From positions 239,988 to 303,987 of the forward strand of contig DATMEN010000004.1 in NCBI GenBank assembly GCA_035556975.1: a stretch of DNA of 64,000 nucleotides, written 5' to 3'. Each line of letters starts with the position of its first letter. The stretch's first letter is position 1. Both the position numbers and the translations under genes were made by a program. The stretch comes from Chthoniobacterales bacterium. Its GTDB lineage: Bacteria > Verrucomicrobiota > Verrucomicrobiia > Chthoniobacterales > UBA10450. Below the pieces are notes generated by a model. That model was not told where the DNA came from and made no database searches. It was given only the letters and a program-made list of their open reading frames with translations. Below are positions 3,026-10,896 of the stretch, piece after piece.

Positions 3026-3089
3026 CAAGGAGCGGCGGCCTCCAGACCGCCGTGGGAAGGCGGGCGGTTTGGAAAGCGCCCCTCCTTGG
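3026..3089. repeat. REP-A palindromic doublet (degenerate second arm)
   Basis: CAAGGAGCGGCGGCCTCCAGACCGCCG ... GCGGGCGGTTTGGAAAGCGCCCCTCCTTGG. Confidence 0.8.
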
Positions 3090-3166
3090 GGCTCCCCTTG
3101 GCGCGTAGGTTTGTAGTTACGCACGCGGATTCGACAACTGTGCTCCTTTGTTTCACACTCGCTCAG

Positions 3167-3850
3167 ATGTCGCGCGGCGCGTTTATCACATTCGAGGGAT
3201 CGGAGGGTTGCGGCAAATCAACGCAGGCGAAGCGGCTGGCGGCGCGGCTGGAGGAGATCGGTGTGCCCGTTCTCATCACCCGGGAACCCGGCGGCACCGC
3301 GATAGGCGAAAAAATTCGCGACCTGCTTCAGTTCGCTCCGGAAAGCCTGGCGATGGCCCCGGAGACGGAGCTGTTGCTCTTCGAGGCCAGCCGGAGCCAG
3401 CTCGTGCGCGAAATTATCCGACCGGCCCTCGAGCAGGGAACTGTGGTGATTTCCGATCGGTTCTTCGATTCGACGACGGTTTACCAGGGCGTTGCGCGCA
3501 AGCTCGATCCTGAAATTGTCGAGAAGCTTAATGATTTTGCCGTGGGCGCCGATAAGCCTGACCTCACTTTCGTGCTCGAAGTCGATATCACGACGGCCCG
3601 CGAGCGCCTGTTGCGGCGCGTGCGCCCGGTCCAGGCTGTCGATCGCATGGAACAGGAGCCGCTCGAATTCTACGAGCGAGTTTGTGAAGGGTATCGCGAG
3701 CTGGCGCGGCGCGATCCGGCGCGGATGCGTCTGCTCGATGGCTCGCAGTCGCCCGATGAAATCGAAAATGAAATCTGGCGGGAAGTGTCGGAGCGTTTTC
3801 CCGCCATGAGGGCGCGCCGGAAAAACGAGGACGAGGGGCGCGCTTCGTAA
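3167..3850 (+). CDS. tmk: Thymidylate kinase
   Basis: ORF 3086..3850 trimmed to ATG 3167: MSRGAFITFEGSEGCGKSTQ (P-loop), ITREPGGT, DRFFDSTTVYQG. Confidence 0.9.
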   Translation: MSRGAFITFEGSEGCGKSTQAKRLAARLEEIGVPVLITREPGGTAIGEKIRDLLQFAPESLAMAPETELLLFEASRSQLVREIIRPALEQGTVVISDRFFDSTTVYQGVARKLDPEIVEKLNDFAVGADKPDLTFVLEVDITTARERLLRRVRPVQAVDRMEQEPLEFYERVCEGYRELARRDPARMRLLDGSQSPDEIENEIWREVSERFPAMRARRKNEDEGRAS

Positions 3851-3857
3851 AAACAAA

Positions 3858-4832
3858 ATGGCTTTTACCCGCGCCGGCGCCTTCGAATACCTGAGCCGCG
3901 CCCATGAAAATGGCCGCCTCGCTCATGCTTACCTGATCTCTGGACCGCCCGGCAGCGGCAAGCGCGGACTCGCCACCGACCTTTCCAATCTCGTCACGAC
4001 GGGAAAGGCGCCTGATGTCTTTGCTTCCCAGCCGCCCGGGGTTTACCTGGCCGAACCGGAATCGAAATCGCGCCGCATCGTGATCGATCAAGTGCGCGGG
4101 CTCGAGCATGCCCTCCAGATGCGGGCCGCGGGCGGACGGCGGAAAGTGGCGATTGTGGCCGAGGCGGACCGGCTCCAACCCCAGGCGGCCAACGCTTTTC
4201 TCAAGACCCTGGAAGAGCCGCCTAACGACTCGCTCCTGCTCCTCTTGAGTTCGATGCCGGAGGTTCTGCCGGACACGATTCTCTCCCGTTGCATCGCTAT
4301 TCCCCTGGTGGCGGAAGAGAAGGCGGCGCCTTCGCGGGAAGAAGAAGAATTGGTTGAGCTGCTCGGCACCGTCGCGGCTCCCGAAGCGCAGGGCGTTCAA
4401 CACGCCTACCGGCTCGCGCGCGGCTTTCATCGCCTGCTGGCCCAAATACGGGAAACGATCCAGCTCGAGAACGCGGCCGCTTTGAAGCGCGACGAGGCGC
4501 GCTACAAGAACACCACGGATGGAGCCTGGCTCGACGAACGCGAGGACTATTTCAAGGCCCTGACGGAAAGCCAGTACGTGCGCCAGCGCTCCCGGCTTCT
4601 CGAAGTGCTCTTTCTCTGGTGGTCAGACGTCCTTCGCGCCAGCACGAATGTGGCGCGGCGTGAACTGCCTTCCGCGAGCGATCGGACGCGCCTCCTCGCG
4701 CAGAAACTGTCGACCGCGGAAATTCTACGGCGAATCCGGCGCCTCGAGGAATTGCGGGATCATCTCGGGCGAAACATCCAGGAAGCTCTTGCGATCGAAG
4801 TGGCCTTCCTGAGCGTGTTTACATTTCAATAG
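3858..4832 (+). CDS. holB: DNA polymerase III delta-prime subunit
   Basis: GRLAHAYLISGPPGSGKRGLA, AANAFLKTLEEPP, ILSRC. It starts 8 nt after tmk, which is the classic tmk-holB pairing. Confidence 0.85.
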   Translation: MAFTRAGAFEYLSRAHENGRLAHAYLISGPPGSGKRGLATDLSNLVTTGKAPDVFASQPPGVYLAEPESKSRRIVIDQVRGLEHALQMRAAGGRRKVAIVAEADRLQPQAANAFLKTLEEPPNDSLLLLLSSMPEVLPDTILSRCIAIPLVAEEKAAPSREEEELVELLGTVAAPEAQGVQHAYRLARGFHRLLAQIRETIQLENAAALKRDEARYKNTTDGAWLDEREDYFKALTESQYVRQRSRLLEVLFLWWSDVLRASTNVARRELPSASDRTRLLAQKLSTAEILRRIRRLEELRDHLGRNIQEALAIEVAFLSVFTFQ

Positions 4833-4919
4833 AGCGCACACACCGCGGCGCTCAACCATGCTCGACCTGTGAAGGATTTAGGGCGCCTGCGCATCCAGGC
4901 GATTAGCGCCCGCTCTCGG

Positions 4920-5195
4920 TCATTGCGTAACCCAATCCGCGCACAGCACCTCGGCTTGGGCGAGAACGGTCTTGGTAGCCCCTTCCTTGAGGTCCGGGGG
5001 ATAGCCGTGTTTACGGAGGATGCGTGTCACTCGATGGCCGCGCGCAATCGCGCGGAAAGAATTACGCCGCCAAAAGATGCGCGTTCGGCCGCGCCCCCCG
5101 TCCGGCGGCAGTTTCAGCGCCTGTTCGACGGTGTATCCGAGCTCTCTGAACCACGTCAGCGCAGCTTCTTCGACGACAGATTCGGTGAAACTCAT
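4920..5195 (-). pseudogene. hsdR: Type I restriction subunit R relic (N-terminal ~57 codons joined to C-terminal ~30 codons)
   Basis: [23 protein letters not shown] is an HsdR N-terminus. Removing one G from the homopolymer at 5094-5099 gives [25 protein letters not shown], the next HsdR segment. The tail [28 protein letters not shown] is the HsdR C-terminal (DUF3387-like) motif. The nuclease/helicase core of roughly 900 aa is missing. Confidence 0.75.
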
Positions 5196-5208
5196 TACGT
5201 CTCGCGTC

Positions 5209-7044
5209 TTATTTCGTCATCGACATCGAAAGTCCGAGCTTCCATCGAGTATTCGCGACTTCGGATACGACCGTGTAGTAGGTCGAATCACTCGAGAGAA
5301 CAAGAACGTCATCGTCTTGCTGAACCGGCACAACGCTCTTTGTAATATGCCGCACCAGTTGATCCCGACGGCTCAAGCCAAGCAGTTTCTGATACGGATA
5401 ACCTGCGTTGCATTCGGGTGGCTCATGGCTGTCCCCGTCCCACGCTACTGACGAAACCCCAAATTCGCCGAATGCAGGCAGAAGACATACACCATTGCTG
5501 TCTGTTAAGATGAACCCGCGTTTGCTTTGCCATGCTGCTTCTGCCAACTCGATCGGGACTCGCCACTGGCCTATTTGAGCCGCCGCAAACATTAAGCCCG
5601 CGAATGTTCCGTTCGGATTTAGGAGTGGCTGGCAGAGAAAGAATGTGCCGTGTTTGTTGTAAAGCGACGCTACTTGGTCAGAGACAAATGCCTTCCTAAA
5701 TGAGTTGGCTATTTGAAAGTATGGGCGCTCGGAAACTCCACGGCTTGTGATATCCGCCTTCCGAGCAACTGATAGTCCTTTTGGCAATGAGCACGCGAGG
5801 ATTTGCCCGGCTTCGTTTGCGACATATAGGCCTTGGGCAGCCAGAGGACCGAGGCTCGTTTGAAGGCGATCGAGCCAGTCCGCGGGTCCGCTTTCGTGGA
5901 TGAGCTTGAGAGCATTCCCATTCTCTCGCGCGAGGGCGTCGAGTCCCTCGTTCAAAGGGTCTTCAATCTGTGAAATGACCGACGAGAGATCCACATCGAG
6001 CCTTGCTTCAGTATCGGTGTGAAGAGCTAACGTTTTTGAAAGGATCAGGTCTGAGAGAGCCGCCGCCAACGCATGTGAACGGATTGTGGCTGGATCGGCC
6101 GGCAACACGGACGGAGGTGTCAAAGCAACAATTCCGCGTGCGGCAAAGATTTCTGGGGTATGCGAGCGCATATCAAACTGCAGGCTGTAGAATTGAGGCC
6201 ACTCCGTTGTTCGATGATGCGGATTGTTTTCGAACTGGTGAATGGCATCATCCACCAGGCGCGACACTTCTGGATCGCGGTGGCTGAATCCGACAAACAA
6301 CGTGTGCCTCTTCCGCAATAGTTCGATCAACAGGTTGAAGAATTCCGCATTAGCGCGGTAGTGGTGGCGATAATCCCGTCTGGTCAGGATGAGATGTTCG
6401 TCGAGACGCGAAACACAGCCATGGATCTTGAATAGGACCGAGCCCGGCCGGCGCCCCCCAATGATCTCGCGAGCAGTGGGTAGATGCGTATCATTCGTTG
6501 CGATAAATAACTCAGAACGCCCTAGCGACGACCACGCTTTTTCGAAAAGCGCGTCATAGTTAGTAGTGACGTAGATTTTGCAACCCAGTTCCGCCAATAG
6601 TCTGTGACTAGTCGTAGGCAGTTTGTCGCCCCCGAAGACGTCTCTCAACCTCTGTTGCAGAGTTTCATTTCCGAGAACCTGGGCTGCGAGCTCGGCCAGA
6701 GTAAGCGGATCGTTCTTTAGGTCCTCATCGTCCACAAGGTTCCTGTCCAACTGGAAGTAGTCGACGAGAAGGCTCTGCCATGACGGAAAGCCTGCCGGAA
6801 GCGAAACTCCCGCCCCGAAAAAAGCCGTCGCATTGTTCGTGCTGAAGCCTTGGACGCAGCGAGGCGGCCAGAACGTGGAAATATCTCGCCAACTGACTTC
6901 GTCTTTTCGGAATCGTTTGAGAGACTCGTCAATCCACGAAGCCGATTCCTTCGCTACAAGAGGGTCGGAGAATCGGTCGCTTCTTTCCTTTAGGTTTTTG
7001 GCCAGCAGGACGGCAGGGGCGGCTTGAGCCGGAGTCGTCTTCAT
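5209..7044 (-). CDS. SIR2-like (SIR2_2 type) NADase domain fused to a C-terminal Cache/PDC-like sensor domain
   Basis: 611 aa. The N-terminal part has [47 protein letters not shown] and [11 protein letters not shown]. The C-terminal ~210 aa has [64 protein letters not shown] and [18 protein letters not shown]. There is no TM segment or signal peptide. Confidence 0.7.
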
Positions 7045-7148
7045 ATGTGGGGGCCAATTGTTGAAGGGCAGCGAAGTTCGCCGCTCAGTAGCTTTGGCAG
7101 CAGCGTGTCGCGCAGCGTAGCGAGGGTGCGGGATTCGGTGGCACTCAT
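7041..7148 (-). pseudogene. hsdS: Type I specificity subunit C-terminal relic (35 codons)
   Basis: Own translation (below the ORF-track cutoff): [35 protein letters not shown]. RDxLLPKLLSGEL is the conserved HsdS C-terminal helix. Its TGA overlaps the SIR2 gene ATG (ATGA), and its ATG shares one nt with the stop of the upstream gene. Confidence 0.7.
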
Positions 7149-7996
7149 CATGAGATTGGCGCGACCATACTGCGCTTTGCTTTTAGGCCGACAAGAGCCG
7201 CCCTCAAAACTTGTAGGCAAATTTGTGCCGTATGCTCGTCCGGTTGGAAACCTGATGCCATCTGTTCATACGGGTGGATGTAGTTCCTGAAGTCCCGGAC
7301 AGCGTGCCCGAACTTTTTCACATCAAGACGCAGCACTCCGACTTCGTGGGCAACATCAATAAGGTTCGCGAGGGTCCATTCATGAAATGCACGGACCTTC
7401 CCTGTTTCCTTTTCTTTTGGGCTTGCCGCAGCCCGATTGAACTCAGCGGGATTCTTCAAAGCTACGGCCAAAAGGATTCCTTCAAGAATGCTCCCGCACA
7501 TGAAGACTGTTGAAAGCGGAGCACCACCGCCAACGCACTCCACCGCTTCTTTCACCCTTGCCGTTAGTATGCGTTCAATGCTGTGGTCCAAATCCAACCC
7601 TTCAACGGAGATCGCGCCGAAATCTCGCTTGAGGAAATCGGACTCTGTTTCCTGCTTTAGCTCCCTCCCCAGAAGGCGCGCCGCCGTTCGACTACACTCT
7701 TCATATTGCCGGTCAGCACGCTCGTTCTTGCCAGGGTCATTGAGGTATCGCCATACCTCCAGAAGTTGTTCCAAAGCCCTCCCGACATTTGCAGGCGTTT
7801 CGATTTCCCAGAACGCTCGAAGTCGCTTTGCCTTCGATGTGCCGTTGAAAGCGTAGCGCGGATCATAAATGTTTGTTCCTACCTCTTGTCGGAAGAACTC
7901 GGCGAACGTCCTATCAGAAAAGTTTAGGACATATCCACTGGTCATGCCGAATAGGTCTTCGAATCTTTGCTTCTCGATCGTTGAAAGAGCACTCAT
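7148..7996 (-). CDS. Hypothetical protein with a HEPN-like C-terminal four-helix region (283 aa)
   Basis: ORF 7148..8242 trimmed to ATG 7994-7996: [35 protein letters not shown].... The C-terminus reads [16 protein letters not shown]...[14 protein letters not shown]...[16 protein letters not shown] (an R-x6-H / RNxxH motif). The upstream 82 codons of the long ORF are an alternate frame over the hsdS relic. Confidence 0.6.
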
Positions 7997-8334
7997 GCAG
8001 AGATCTCTTTTCCTACTCCGATTACCCAAAAGTCTTTGTCGCACAATTCGATGCCCCGCGGTCCTTGTCCTTTTCTTCCGAGGATTAGACCAGGCGCTTC
8101 GGCTAGCGGTGCGTCGTGCCAGCCACATTGCCCGTTGGTGCCGAACACGGGCACCTTTCCCAGACTTCGCGTGTCGGCTTTCAACGCGCGTCCGTAGTTC
8201 AACGAGACAAGCTTCCGAGCCGGGACTAGAGGCCATCGCCATTCAGTGTCTCTTGCGAGACCGCCAGGGTAGGTGGTTCCGGGCTGCGACGAATCTTCAA
8301 TCGTCGATGGGCTGATTTTAGGAGAAGATCGCAT
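7993..8334 (-). pseudogene. hsdS: Type I specificity subunit 5' relic (first target-recognition domain only)
   Basis: MRSSPK...[21 protein letters not shown]...[47 protein letters not shown] is the HsdS TRD pattern. It breaks off after FWVI, where the embedded gene starts. Confidence 0.7.
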
Positions 8335-8559
8335 CGTCAACGTCTGCCGTTGTAACGGGTCTGCCTCGTTCAACTGCCAAGAGCAAGAGCAAGAGTCTTC
8401 AAACGTGTCCGAGATGTACTTGAGGAAGATCAGGCCGAGGACGACGTGCTTGTACTCCCCCGCGTCCATGTTGCTACGGAGCCTGTCCGCGGCGAGCCAC
8501 AGCTTGGCTTCGAAGCCGAGATCAGCGGAGGAGTTCTTGGAGGAGCGAGCGCGAGCCAT
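8335..8559 (-). pseudogene. hsdM: Type I methyltransferase subunit relic (N-terminal 54 codons plus short tail)
   Basis: [54 protein letters not shown] is the HsdM N-terminal domain. It is followed by (CTCTTG)3 and about 20 more codons. The methyltransferase core is absent. Confidence 0.75.
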
Positions 8560-8640
8560 GGAGGTAGATGTTTCTACCGCAATGCCTGCCGAAATCGAGG
8601 CGAATTCCTCAACGCCCGTTAGCCCGAGGTCGCCGCAAAC

Positions 8641-8704
8641 CAAGGAGCGGCGGTTTGGAACCGCCGACCTAACAAAACGGCGGTTTCAAACCGCCGCTCC
8701 TTGG
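8641..8704. repeat. REP-A palindromic doublet
   Basis: CAAGGAGCGGCGGTTTGGAACCGCCG acctaacaaaa CGGCGGTTTCAAACCGCCGCTCCTTGG. Confidence 0.9.
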
Positions 8705-8745
8705 CATTGTTCTCCGCGCGCCCACGGCATATCATCCCGAACTCT

Positions 8746-9489
8746 ATGAGATTCGAAAATCAGGTTGCGGTGGTCACGGGGGCGGGGCGGGGAATCGGGC
8801 ACGCCATTGCCGTGCGCCTCGCGAGCGAGGGCGCGCGTGTCGCCTCGGTGAGCCGAACCGAAGCAAACGCCAATAAAACCGCGGCGGAGATCAACGGCGC
8901 CTGCGCGGATGCGTCGAAGGCTTATGCCGTCGATGTGGCAGACCATGCCGCCGTCCAAAAAATTGGGGCCCAGATCCTGGAAGACTTCGGTCGCGTCGAC
9001 ATTCTGGTGAATAATGCCGGCGTCACCCGCGATGGCCTCAGTATGCGGATGTCGGTCGAAGATTGGGACACCGTCCTGAACACGAACTTGAAAGGCGCCT
9101 TCAGTTTTACGCAGGCCTTGATGCGGCCGATGATCAAGCAGCGGAGCGGCCGGATCATCAACATCAGCTCGATCAGCGGATTGATCGGCAACGCGGGCCA
9201 GGCGAATTACGCTGCGAGCAAGGCGGGGCTGATTGGGCTTACGAAAACCCTGGCCCGAGAGCTGGCGAGCCGTGGGATCACGGTGAACGCCGTCGCTCCC
9301 GGGTTGATCGAGACGGACATGACCACCGTGCTTTCCGACGAAATTCGTCAATCCATTTTGCAGAAGGTCCCGCTCGGCAAATTGGGGCAACCGGACGATA
9401 TCGCCGGCGCTGTCGCCTATCTCGCTTCCGCGGAGGCGGCCTATATCACCGGCCAAGTGCTGGCCGTCGACGGCGGCATGGTGATGTAA
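8746..9489 (+). CDS. fabG: 3-oxoacyl-ACP reductase
   Basis: Trimmed to MRFENQVAVVTGAGRGIGHAIA. Also NNAG, YAASKAG (YxxxK) and GITVNAVAPG. Confidence 0.85.
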   Translation: MRFENQVAVVTGAGRGIGHAIAVRLASEGARVASVSRTEANANKTAAEINGACADASKAYAVDVADHAAVQKIGAQILEDFGRVDILVNNAGVTRDGLSMRMSVEDWDTVLNTNLKGAFSFTQALMRPMIKQRSGRIINISSISGLIGNAGQANYAASKAGLIGLTKTLARELASRGITVNAVAPGLIETDMTTVLSDEIRQSILQKVPLGKLGQPDDIAGAVAYLASAEAAYITGQVLAVDGGMVM

Positions 9490-9650: not shown

Positions 9651-10283
9651 ATGAAAACTCTCTCAGCACTGTTCGCGATTGGGCTCGCAATTCTTGGCTA
9701 CACCTATCTTCAGCGCCCGATCAGTTATCCGGCCGGCGTTCTCGTCGAGTCGGAGCCAGCCCAGATCGCGATAGCCGAAGGCCACGCGCCGATCGAGCAT
9801 GGCGAGTATCGCCTGAAACCGCTCGCCCGCTTTTCGCTCGATGGGCGCATCTTGCACCGGAAGGTTTATCGCTACGATCGGGAAGCGAAGCTCGTCCCCA
9901 TCGATCTTGCGGTTGGCTGGGGGCCGATGTCCGATCAGGCAGTGCTCGATCAAATCAAGATCACTCAGAGCATGCGCTTCTACTGGTACGAATACCGGTT
10001 GCCACCGCCGATTCCCCAGGACCGAATCATTTCGCACAGCACCAATCTGCATGTCATTCCGGCGACATCCGTGGTTCTGTCCTTCTGCAAATCGTTGCGC
10101 CAGGGTGAGCTGGTTCATCTTGAGGGCGAACTGGTCGAGGCGACCGGTCCGGAGATCGGCGCCTGGCGCAGTTCACTCAGCCGGACGGACACCGGAAAGG
10201 GCGCGTGTGAATTGATGCTGGTGCAAGATTGTTCGAAGATCAGTCGCACGGAAGCCAAGTCCGCCCGACTCGTCACGCGCTGA
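9651..10283 (+). CDS. Hypothetical exported/membrane-anchored protein
   Basis: 210-aa ORF with an N-terminal hydrophobic segment [20 protein letters not shown]. No family recognised. Confidence 0.5.
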
Positions 10284-10287
10284 TCCT

Positions 10288-10382
10288 GGTGGACCGGGCG
10301 CTCCGCGCGCGATGCTTTGGAGTTGGCCCGAGAGCTTTCGGGGCCATTATTGTCATCGCGCGACGGAGCGCGCGATCCACCT
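10288..10382. repeat. PAL-G long palindrome (~95 bp)
   Basis: GGTGGACCGGGCGCTCCGCGCGCGATG ... CCCGAGAGCTTTCGGGG ... CATCGCGCGACGGAGCGCGCGATCCACC. It is a homologue of the element at 39363-39461 and starts 5 nt after a stop codon. Confidence 0.8.
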
Positions 10383-10419
10383 ATTTGCACCGCCGCTCTT
10401 CCCGTTTCATGGTGAAACC

Positions 10420-10896
10420 ATGGCGACAGAAAAAGCGACATTTGGGGCCGGTTGTTTCTGGGGCGTCGAAGCGACCTTCCGGGCCACGCCCGGTGTGACC
10501 AATGCAACCGTCGGATACGCCGGCGGCACGACGGAGAACCCGACTTATGAGGCTGTGTGCAGCCACGACACCGGACATGCCGAAGTGGTGCAGGTGGAGT
10601 TCGATCCGGCCATCGTCAGTTACAATCAGCTCCTCGATGTTTTCTGGGCCAATCACAATCCGACCACGCTGAATCGTCAGGGGCCGGACATTGGGGACCA
10701 ATATCGTTCAGTGATTTTTTATCATTCGCCGGAACAGCGCGTCGCGGCGGAAGAGTCGAAATCCAGCCTGGACCAGAGTGGGCATTTCAAGCGGCCCATC
10801 GTGACTCAGATCGAACCGGCGCCGACATTTTACCCCGCGGAGGATTACCACCAGCGCTACCTGGAGAAGCGCGGCTTGTCGCATTGCGCGGTTTGA
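10420..10896 (+). CDS. msrA: Peptide methionine (S)-S-oxide reductase
   Basis: Trimmed to [20 protein letters not shown] (GCFWG active site), followed by [12 protein letters not shown]. Confidence 0.9.

Follow-up and report, generated by a model that had tools for sequence, protein, structure and literature searches.

The 64,000-bp stretch of Chthoniobacterales bacterium DNA analyzed here, hereafter the window (assembly GCA_035556975.1, contig DATMEN010000004.1, positions 239,988 to 303,987 of the forward strand), carries among the remains of a type I restriction-modification (R-M) operon an intact gene for a 282-aa protein, in which a presumed sensor or regulatory domain of the AbiJ type is joined to a divergent HEPN domain. 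We consider it probable that the product is an autonomous, single-polypeptide effector of the abortive-infection type, a predicted anti-phage RNase that travels in R-M islands. A preliminary description, made from the sequence letters alone, had proposed a HEPN-like protein that might work together with the adjacent SIR2-Cache gene; the first half of that proposal was borne out and the second was not. The gene and its parts are as follows.

7148..7996, minus strand: AbiJ-like HEPN gene, start codon ATG at 7996-7994 and stop codon TGA at 7150-7148, 282 aa plus stop

7625..7996, minus strand: N-terminal all-helical domain of the AbiJ type, residues 1-124, with the helices of the AlphaFold2 (AF2) model at residues 6-123

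7151..7624, minus strand: C-terminal DUF4145-like HEPN domain, residues 125-282, placed by Pfam PF13643 matches, a domain model and Foldseek

7271..7297, minus strand: predicted catalytic motif RDFRNYIHP (R234-P242), placed by sequence and conservation

The ATG at 7996-7994 lies inside a listed minus-strand open reading frame (ORF) of 364 aa (8242..7148), and the preliminary description had already taken it as the credible start. That choice was right: when the window protein was aligned with 27 homologues of 53-92% identity (28 sequences, referred to below as the family members), nearly all homologues started at the same Met and conservation of the protein began at residue 1. The 82 codons upstream of the ATG are indeed an alternate frame, Arg-rich and overlapping a stub ORF (7993..8643) with an HsdM_N match and an HsdS head. 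The length of 283 aa first given for the protein included the stop codon and is corrected here to 282 aa. A search of a 90%-clustered protein collection returned 3,544 homologues at E ≤ 1e-3 (best 3e-171), and among 1.84 billion 50%-cluster representatives a profile search matched 4,656 at E ≤ 1e-3, of which 421 reached E ≤ 1e-30; with homologues in the thousands, the HEPN gene is far beyond a chance ORF. Comparison with its 92%-identical relative (locus L001) gave a ratio of nonsynonymous to synonymous substitution rates (dN/dS) of 0.087 at a dS of 0.40, averaged over both lineages since their split; the gene is intact and under purifying selection. With hidden Markov models (HMMs) of the two domains no paralogue turned up in the rest of the window or in 84 loci, and a promoter and terminator scan of 4700-9000 gave nothing exceeding shuffled sequences. 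One homologue, in a Phycisphaeraceae metagenome-assembled genome (MAG; L008), was split into ORFs 9842-10159 and 10163-10840, with no R-M genes nearby, and is likely a pseudogene or a sequencing error.

The assignment of the C-terminal half to a divergent DUF4145-type HEPN domain is well supported, since three independent and individually modest lines, namely weak DUF4145 matches, HEPN structural neighbours in model searches and near-invariant R/N/H residues, all lead to it. Because the window protein had no family match of its own, scans of its homologues were needed to reveal DUF4145. Each family member was scanned individually, and 19 of the 28 matched PF13643 (DUF4145) weakly, always over the same region (residues ~150-242 against profile positions 1-71 of 88). 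Only P0096, which is 56% identical to the window protein, passed the PF13643 gathering cut-off of 23.1 bits, scoring 26.8 bits; the other matching homologues scored 12-20 bits, and the window protein did not reach the cut-off, giving no match at E ≤ 1. Distant relatives with other N-termini matched the profile equally weakly. By these scores the family reads as a divergent sister of DUF4145 that straddles the Pfam threshold. DUF4145 is a recognised HEPN family that has been noted in R-M operons and fused to AbiJ-NTD1 (PMC3710099), and it is an experimentally proven RNase domain in RAZR (PD-T7-4), where R146 and H154 are essential (PMC13017515).

Structure prediction pointed the same way. The full-length AF2 model was all-helical with a predicted local distance difference test (pLDDT) score of 87.4, and a model of residues 125-282 alone was likewise all-helical (pLDDT 83.5, predicted template-modelling score 0.80), in keeping with the HEPN fold, an all-alpha bundle of roughly four up-down helices. 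With the domain-only model, all PDB matches that Foldseek returned at template-modelling scores of ~0.45-0.6 and root-mean-square deviations of 5-7 Å were HEPN proteins, at non-significant E-values: TT1696 (1ufb, probability 0.92), the sacsin HEPN domain (3o10), 1wol, 1o3u and 2q00, together with the HEPN toxins 7bxo and 8xdj. Sequence searches of the PDB with the protein and with the family profile returned nothing relevant, and nothing was found in a BFVD structure search. The C-terminal part had been described as an all-helical bundle ending at the motif; the helical character holds in the AF2 model, and the ending does not, for a further long helix (residues 254-275) follows the motif.

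The motif stretch covers residues 229-244 and contains R234-x6-H241 with R237-N238-x2-H241 embedded in it, the very spacing that had been read from the sequence. Conservation of the R and H positions in homologues, which had been put forward as a check, was near-invariant (95-99% across 144 diverged representatives). Among these aligned 50%-cluster representatives, R234 occurred in 137 of 144 and was replaced by K in 6 more, while R237 was found in 143, N238 in 142, H241 in 142 and P242 in 139. An acidic residue of the second helix, E172, was present in every aligned representative (148/148).

Residues 1-124 gave no match to any Pfam model, AbiJ_NTD3/4/5 included, in any of the 28 family members. 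Their relationships became visible in a tblastn search of plasmids, in which residues 1-109, 1-119 and 1-146 matched the N-termini of proteins that are encoded on plasmids of Pseudomonas, Aeromonas, Klebsiella and Paraburkholderia and annotated as 'abortive infection family protein'. BLASTP aligned the N-terminal domain with the plasmid Abi_C proteins at 43% identity over 110 residues (E 2e-21), and hhalign of the family profile with the Paraburkholderia plasmid protein gave a probability of 99.7%. Three of these N-terminal-domain relatives carry a C-terminal Pfam Abi_C domain at 48-50 bits, against a cut-off of 24. The suggestion that the N-terminal part resembles an AbiJ-type module therefore held: its first 110-146 residues match the N-termini of proteins that end in an above-threshold Abi_C domain. 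By sequence, the same N-terminal module is thus joined either to an Abi_C HEPN domain or to a DUF4145-like one. The C-terminal domain in turn is found on other N-termini, including the TPR repeats of P0242 and an unrelated Prevotella head (L091). This swapping of heads and tails is the modular sensor-effector layout described for AbiJ-like proteins, in which the N-terminal domain would presumably be the sensor or regulatory part.

Some further relatives of either half were seen. The Prevotella protein (L091, 3620-4489), whose head reads MIISQKTIEKLRELINEETEYRSG..., bears the DUF4145-like domain with the motif RDFRNYIHP, and a protein with a Paraburkholderia head (L089, 3560-4456) bears the same domain with the same motif and adjoins a PIN-domain gene. 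On P. aeruginosa plasmid pPae-13 (L087, 480-4825) an Abi_C relative follows an Eco57I-type methylase and a BsuBI/PstI endonuclease, and on a P. syringae plasmid (L088, 1-4816) an Abi_C relative sharing the N-terminal domain follows a type ISP enzyme.

The closest known counterparts are the single-gene abortive-infection HEPN proteins of the AbiJ/Abi_C group (PF14355), which include Lactococcus AbiJ (Abi-859), S. aureus SadR and the plasmid proteins WP_058657685.1 and WP_105224171.1. The window protein resembles them in size (~270-280 aa), in its two-part layout with a homologous N-terminal domain and a HEPN-type C-terminus, and in the position that their relatives take right after R-M genes. 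RNase activity of Abi_C has been reported for SadR, and phage escape from AbiJ maps to ssDNA-annealing proteins. Unlike AbiJ, neither the window protein nor the 28 family members gave an Abi_C match even at E ≤ 10, with DUF4145 in its place; the motif is also different (RDFRNYIH in the family, RNNKSLAH in the L090 relative), and the N-terminal domain is not AbiJ_NTD3/4/5 by Pfam. A still nearer architecture, AbiJ-NTD1 fused to DUF4145, appears in the 2013 HEPN census (PMC3710099, example gi 113972064), with which we compared the protein by description only. Both have a helical N-terminal domain of ~125-140 aa, common to AbiJ proteins, fused to a DUF4145-type HEPN domain, and the fusion found here fits that architecture. 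Our literature search found no study of this particular family, the census architecture being the nearest entry.

RAZR (PD-T7-4) offers a second likeness: it too is a small single-gene system with a C-terminal HEPN domain of the DUF4145 clade and a non-standard R-H spacing (R146...H154). Its R and H are essential, it cleaves ssRNA and it aborts infection (PMC13017515). The resemblance stops at the N-terminus, which in RAZR is a Cys4 zinc ribbon, and at its activation by assembly around phage ring proteins, which nothing here implies. PADLOC models, which may include PD-T7-4, gave no match; in PADLOC-DB v2.0.0 this was so at E ≤ 1 for the window protein and for the 28 family members. By analogy with AbiJ, SadR and RAZR, we predict a mode of action like that of these single-gene HEPN systems.

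DUF4145-type HEPN domains also occur in BxaP (BREX-associated) and Ishtar1, which are likewise single-gene and associated with defence islands. A different possibility is that the protein acts mainly against plasmids or other mobile DNA, for example in an Ishtar-like manner by cleaving replication primer RNA, or that it serves the operon without lethal effect, as an RNA-binding or regulatory factor. Ishtar1/2, which are HEPN proteins of DUF4145 and DUF3644, make cells lose plasmids at little cost to viability, R-M operons restrict plasmids and phages alike, DUF3644 genes recur as neighbours of the gene in the loci described below, and some HEPN domains are non-catalytic. However, the near-invariant R/N/H triad and E172 favour catalysis, and the common N-terminal domain ties the protein to AbiJ-type phage-defence proteins. 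In Ishtar the HEPN domain is N-terminal and followed by a beta-rich C-terminus, a different architecture; in both BxaP and Ishtar1, an N-terminal HEPN is fused to HEAT-like or beta-rich C-termini, and contexts and targets differ. We regard an anti-plasmid or non-lethal role as quite unlikely.

For the autonomous effector that we favour, we infer the following course of events. The AbiJ-type N-terminal domain (~1-124) would act as a sensor of an invader cue or as an autoinhibitory module, and the DUF4145-like HEPN domain (~125-282) as a latent, metal-independent endoribonuclease. Its active site would be formed by R234/R237-N238-H241 with the invariant E172, and would probably be completed across a HEPN dimer or higher oligomer. 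A phage- or other invader-derived cue would then release cleavage of cellular and/or invader RNA and stop translation, with an abortive outcome. The slot between hsdS and hsdR would provide co-transcription, and often translational coupling, as a second line behind restriction, while the effector itself would work independently of the R-M enzymes and of the SIR2-Cache neighbour.

The linkage to R-M genes was analyzed in 80 loci from species-representative genomes of many phyla, within 10 kb on either side of the gene. A type I R-M gene lay within 10 kb in 48 of the 80, and the usual order was hsdM-hsdS-[HEPN gene]-variable cargo-hsdR, so that the residence in a type I locus pointed out in the preliminary description proved to be a stereotyped position between hsdS and hsdR. 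In 41 of 42 loci hsdS preceded the HEPN gene on the same strand, abutting it in 30; hsdR came after it in 39 of 41, and in 31 loci additional cargo of more than 300 nt separated the two. The stop codon of the upstream gene overlapped the HEPN gene start by 4 nt (ATGA) in ~29 of 73 loci. By Pfam, the upstream neighbour was HsdS in 29 of 73 loci, an MmeI-type enzyme in 5, N6_Mtase in 4 and Abi_C in 4; the downstream neighbour was HsdR in ~10 of 77, followed by DUF3800, DUF3644, RhuM, Schlafen, DarT and others. Defence-type neighbours overall comprised Abi_C, RhuM, DarT, Schlafen, DUF3644 and DruA. At the 92%-identical locus (L001) the order is hsdM-hsdS-[HEPN gene]-51-aa ORF-PhoD-like gene-hsdR, and at four Thiobacillus loci with 85%-identical homologues (L002-L005) it is hsdM-hsdS-Abi_C gene-[HEPN gene]-86-aa ORF-RhuM-hsdR. 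The Thiobacillus Abi_C neighbour has an N-terminal Abi_C domain and a T1RH-like C-terminus, and the window protein has no similarity to it.

So fixed a slot, with its ATGA overlaps, would also suit a PrrC-like guard, in which the N-terminal domain docks on HsdS/HsdM, the protein is held inactive, and the HEPN domain fires once a phage anti-restriction protein (Ocr, Stp or ArdA-like) puts the R-M enzyme out of action. PrrC/EcoprrI sets the precedent of a HEPN RNase-type gene within a type I hsd operon serving as a second defence line, Anantharaman et al. (PMC3710099) extended it to R-M-linked HEPN clades, and the plasmid relatives of the N-terminal domain directly follow type II and type ISP R-M genes. 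However, an ABC-ATPase forms the N-terminus of PrrC, which the R-M enzyme keeps inactive, whereas the 282-aa window protein has no ATPase domain in Pfam or NCBIfam, its N-terminal domain being all-helical; the regulatory domain of the PrrC type is thus absent. The varied R-M partners (type I, MmeI-like, type II and ISP) argue against a single specific interface. Seventeen loci with at least 4 kb on both flanks contained no type I gene even by profile search; 3 of them have MmeI-type enzymes and the other 14 had no R-M gene and no common neighbour. With at least 14 well-flanked loci lacking any R-M gene nearby, the HEPN protein can exist alone.

The window itself bears on the same question, through the genes that flank the HEPN gene.

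7993..8643, minus strand: stub ORF of 216 aa that runs from an HsdM N-terminus through the head of an HsdS target recognition domain (TRD) to the final codons of hsdS; an ATGA overlap joins its TGA to the ATG of the HEPN gene

7041..7151, minus strand: 36-aa hsdS-tail ORF, with ATGA-type overlaps with the HEPN gene stop and the SIR2 start

5209..7044, minus strand: SIR2-Cache gene, 611 aa, with PF13289 and a ThsA-like PADLOC match (2e-33)

4920..5195, minus strand: HsdR stub of 91 aa, a head of ~25 aa plus a tail, which marks the 3' end of the decayed type I operon

The stub ORF at 7993..8643 matched PF12161 (HsdM_N) at residues 45-84 and also gave a local hsdM HMM match. DNA comparison with L001 showed that window positions 8560-8396 are the first 171 bp of its hsdM, that 8011-7078 match at 89.6% identity over the last 15 nt of hsdS (8011-7997), the HEPN gene and the hsdS-tail ORF, and that 5024-4931 are the 3' end of its hsdR; the HsdR stub also gave a local hsdR HMM match. 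Between the segments that match L001 lie the HsdS TRD head and the SIR2 gene. Therefore hsdM, hsdS and hsdR have all been reduced to stubs, and the two cargo genes are whole. The stubs look like three clean internal deletions in an operon syntenic with L001, and the chain of 4-nt overlaps from the stub through the HEPN gene and the tail ORF to SIR2 was kept. The HEPN gene had been described as lying between the two halves of a broken hsdS. Fragments of hsdS do lie on both sides, and the head of hsdM is upstream as well. In L001 the HEPN gene is followed by the same hsdS tail, although the hsdS upstream of it is whole (447 aa) and keeps a tail of its own. The downstream piece is thus a scar, a duplicated hsdS end carried along with the HEPN gene, and not just the missing half of one broken hsdS. 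The lower GC content that had been remarked on is real, at ~0.52-0.55 over ~5100-8400 compared with 0.60-0.64 in the flanks.

Scars of this kind suggest, as judged from sequence, that cargo is exchanged by recombination within the ends of hsd genes. Short duplicated hsd ends were seen after cargo genes in L001 (10846-11001), L002 (10849-11109) and L085 (7852-8031), and also in L051, L059 and L075; HsdR-head mini-ORFs follow HEPN or SIR2 cargo genes in other loci. Judging by the translations alone, housekeeping genes flank the low-GC island: probable thymidylate kinase and DNA polymerase III delta' genes on one side (3086-4832), and one for a FabG-like short-chain dehydrogenase on the other (8701-9489).

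An intact HEPN gene, at the dN/dS given above, despite the R-M stubs counts for autonomy, and a toxin that needed the R-M enzyme as its antitoxin should not have survived beside stubs of hsdM, hsdS and hsdR. Unlike PrrC, the gene occurs without R-M in many genomes and has outlived R-M decay here. We therefore judge the PrrC-like guard to be unlikely, and give only a small chance to a broader version of it, a widespread ATPase-less analogue of PrrC whose N-terminal module would dock on or sense several R-M types and free the RNase upon anti-restriction or R-M failure, with the scars marking R-M operons as platforms for swapping guard cassettes.

The SIR2-Cache gene is the other candidate for a tie, and the preliminary description had raised the possibility that the HEPN protein is a second effector or a regulator working with it; in such a two-gene system its partner would be the NAD-depleting SIR2 enzyme. 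Both genes lie on one strand within a single low-GC island, and 4-nt overlaps link their frames by way of the 36-aa tail ORF. We examined co-occurrence from both sides and found none. A tblastn search with the window SIR2 protein found no homologue in any of the 80 HEPN-gene loci (0/80), and SIR2 was not among the 25 commonest Pfam families of the genes immediately downstream. In the nearest homologues the HEPN gene precedes a PhoD-like gene (92% homologue) or RhuM (85% homologues), not SIR2. Conversely, neither domain of the HEPN protein was present in the three SIR2-Cache homologue loci examined (0/3): in L085 the order is hsdM-hsdS-SIR2-RhuM-hsdR, in L086 the homologue stands beside a TIR-KAP NTPase gene, and in L093 it is isolated. 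The proposal had been made to hang on genomic linkage in other genomes, and without such linkage it fails; we consider a two-gene system very improbable. The sequence comparison indicates instead that the SIR2 and HEPN genes are independent cargo genes sharing one operon.

As for the SIR2-Cache protein itself, the copy in the window is 100% identical to a Chthoniobacterales MAG protein, and the C-terminal part carries dCache_1 in several homologues. In L086 (8456-13540) the SIR2-Cache homologue and the TIR-KAP NTPase gene are followed immediately downstream by an RtcA-Hen1-Pnkp RNA-repair cassette, with a phage integrase near.

Several observations weigh against an autonomous HEPN effector. 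The window protein matched nothing in Pfam, NCBIfam or PADLOC (Pfam and PADLOC at E ≤ 1), and a Foldseek search with the full-length model yielded no useful information beyond one weak HEPN match (1wol). All Foldseek E-values were non-significant (0.8-4), those of the domain-only model included. The most invariant triad, R237-N238-x2-H241, has a spacing of 3, outside the canonical Rx4-6H and a residue short of the canonical R-[polar]-x3-H; the canonical x6 spacing to H241 is given by R234 alone, which is slightly less conserved. The ATGA coupling to hsdS (~29-30 loci) could imply a closer tie to R-M than 'autonomous' suggests, and since dN/dS averages both lineages since the L001 split, it is no proof of selection after R-M decay. 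A phage collection contained no match to the protein.

The family is large: it comprises over 3,500 clusters at 90% identity, and species-representative genomes from most bacterial phyla gave at least 546 matches. Annotation calls it only 'hypothetical', Pfam thresholds miss it and it is not in PADLOC. R-M-embedded HEPN toxins and modular AbiJ-like proteins are already known, so that no new principle is involved, and the 2013 HEPN census had already anticipated the family. Its sensor-like head, exchanged between two different HEPN effector families, and its constant place within R-M operons are hallmarks of a compact anti-phage RNase toxin, and its inclusion in catalogues of defence systems would be useful. 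The window, where the R-M system has decayed and its cargo is intact, amounts to a natural experiment which argues that such cargo acts independently.

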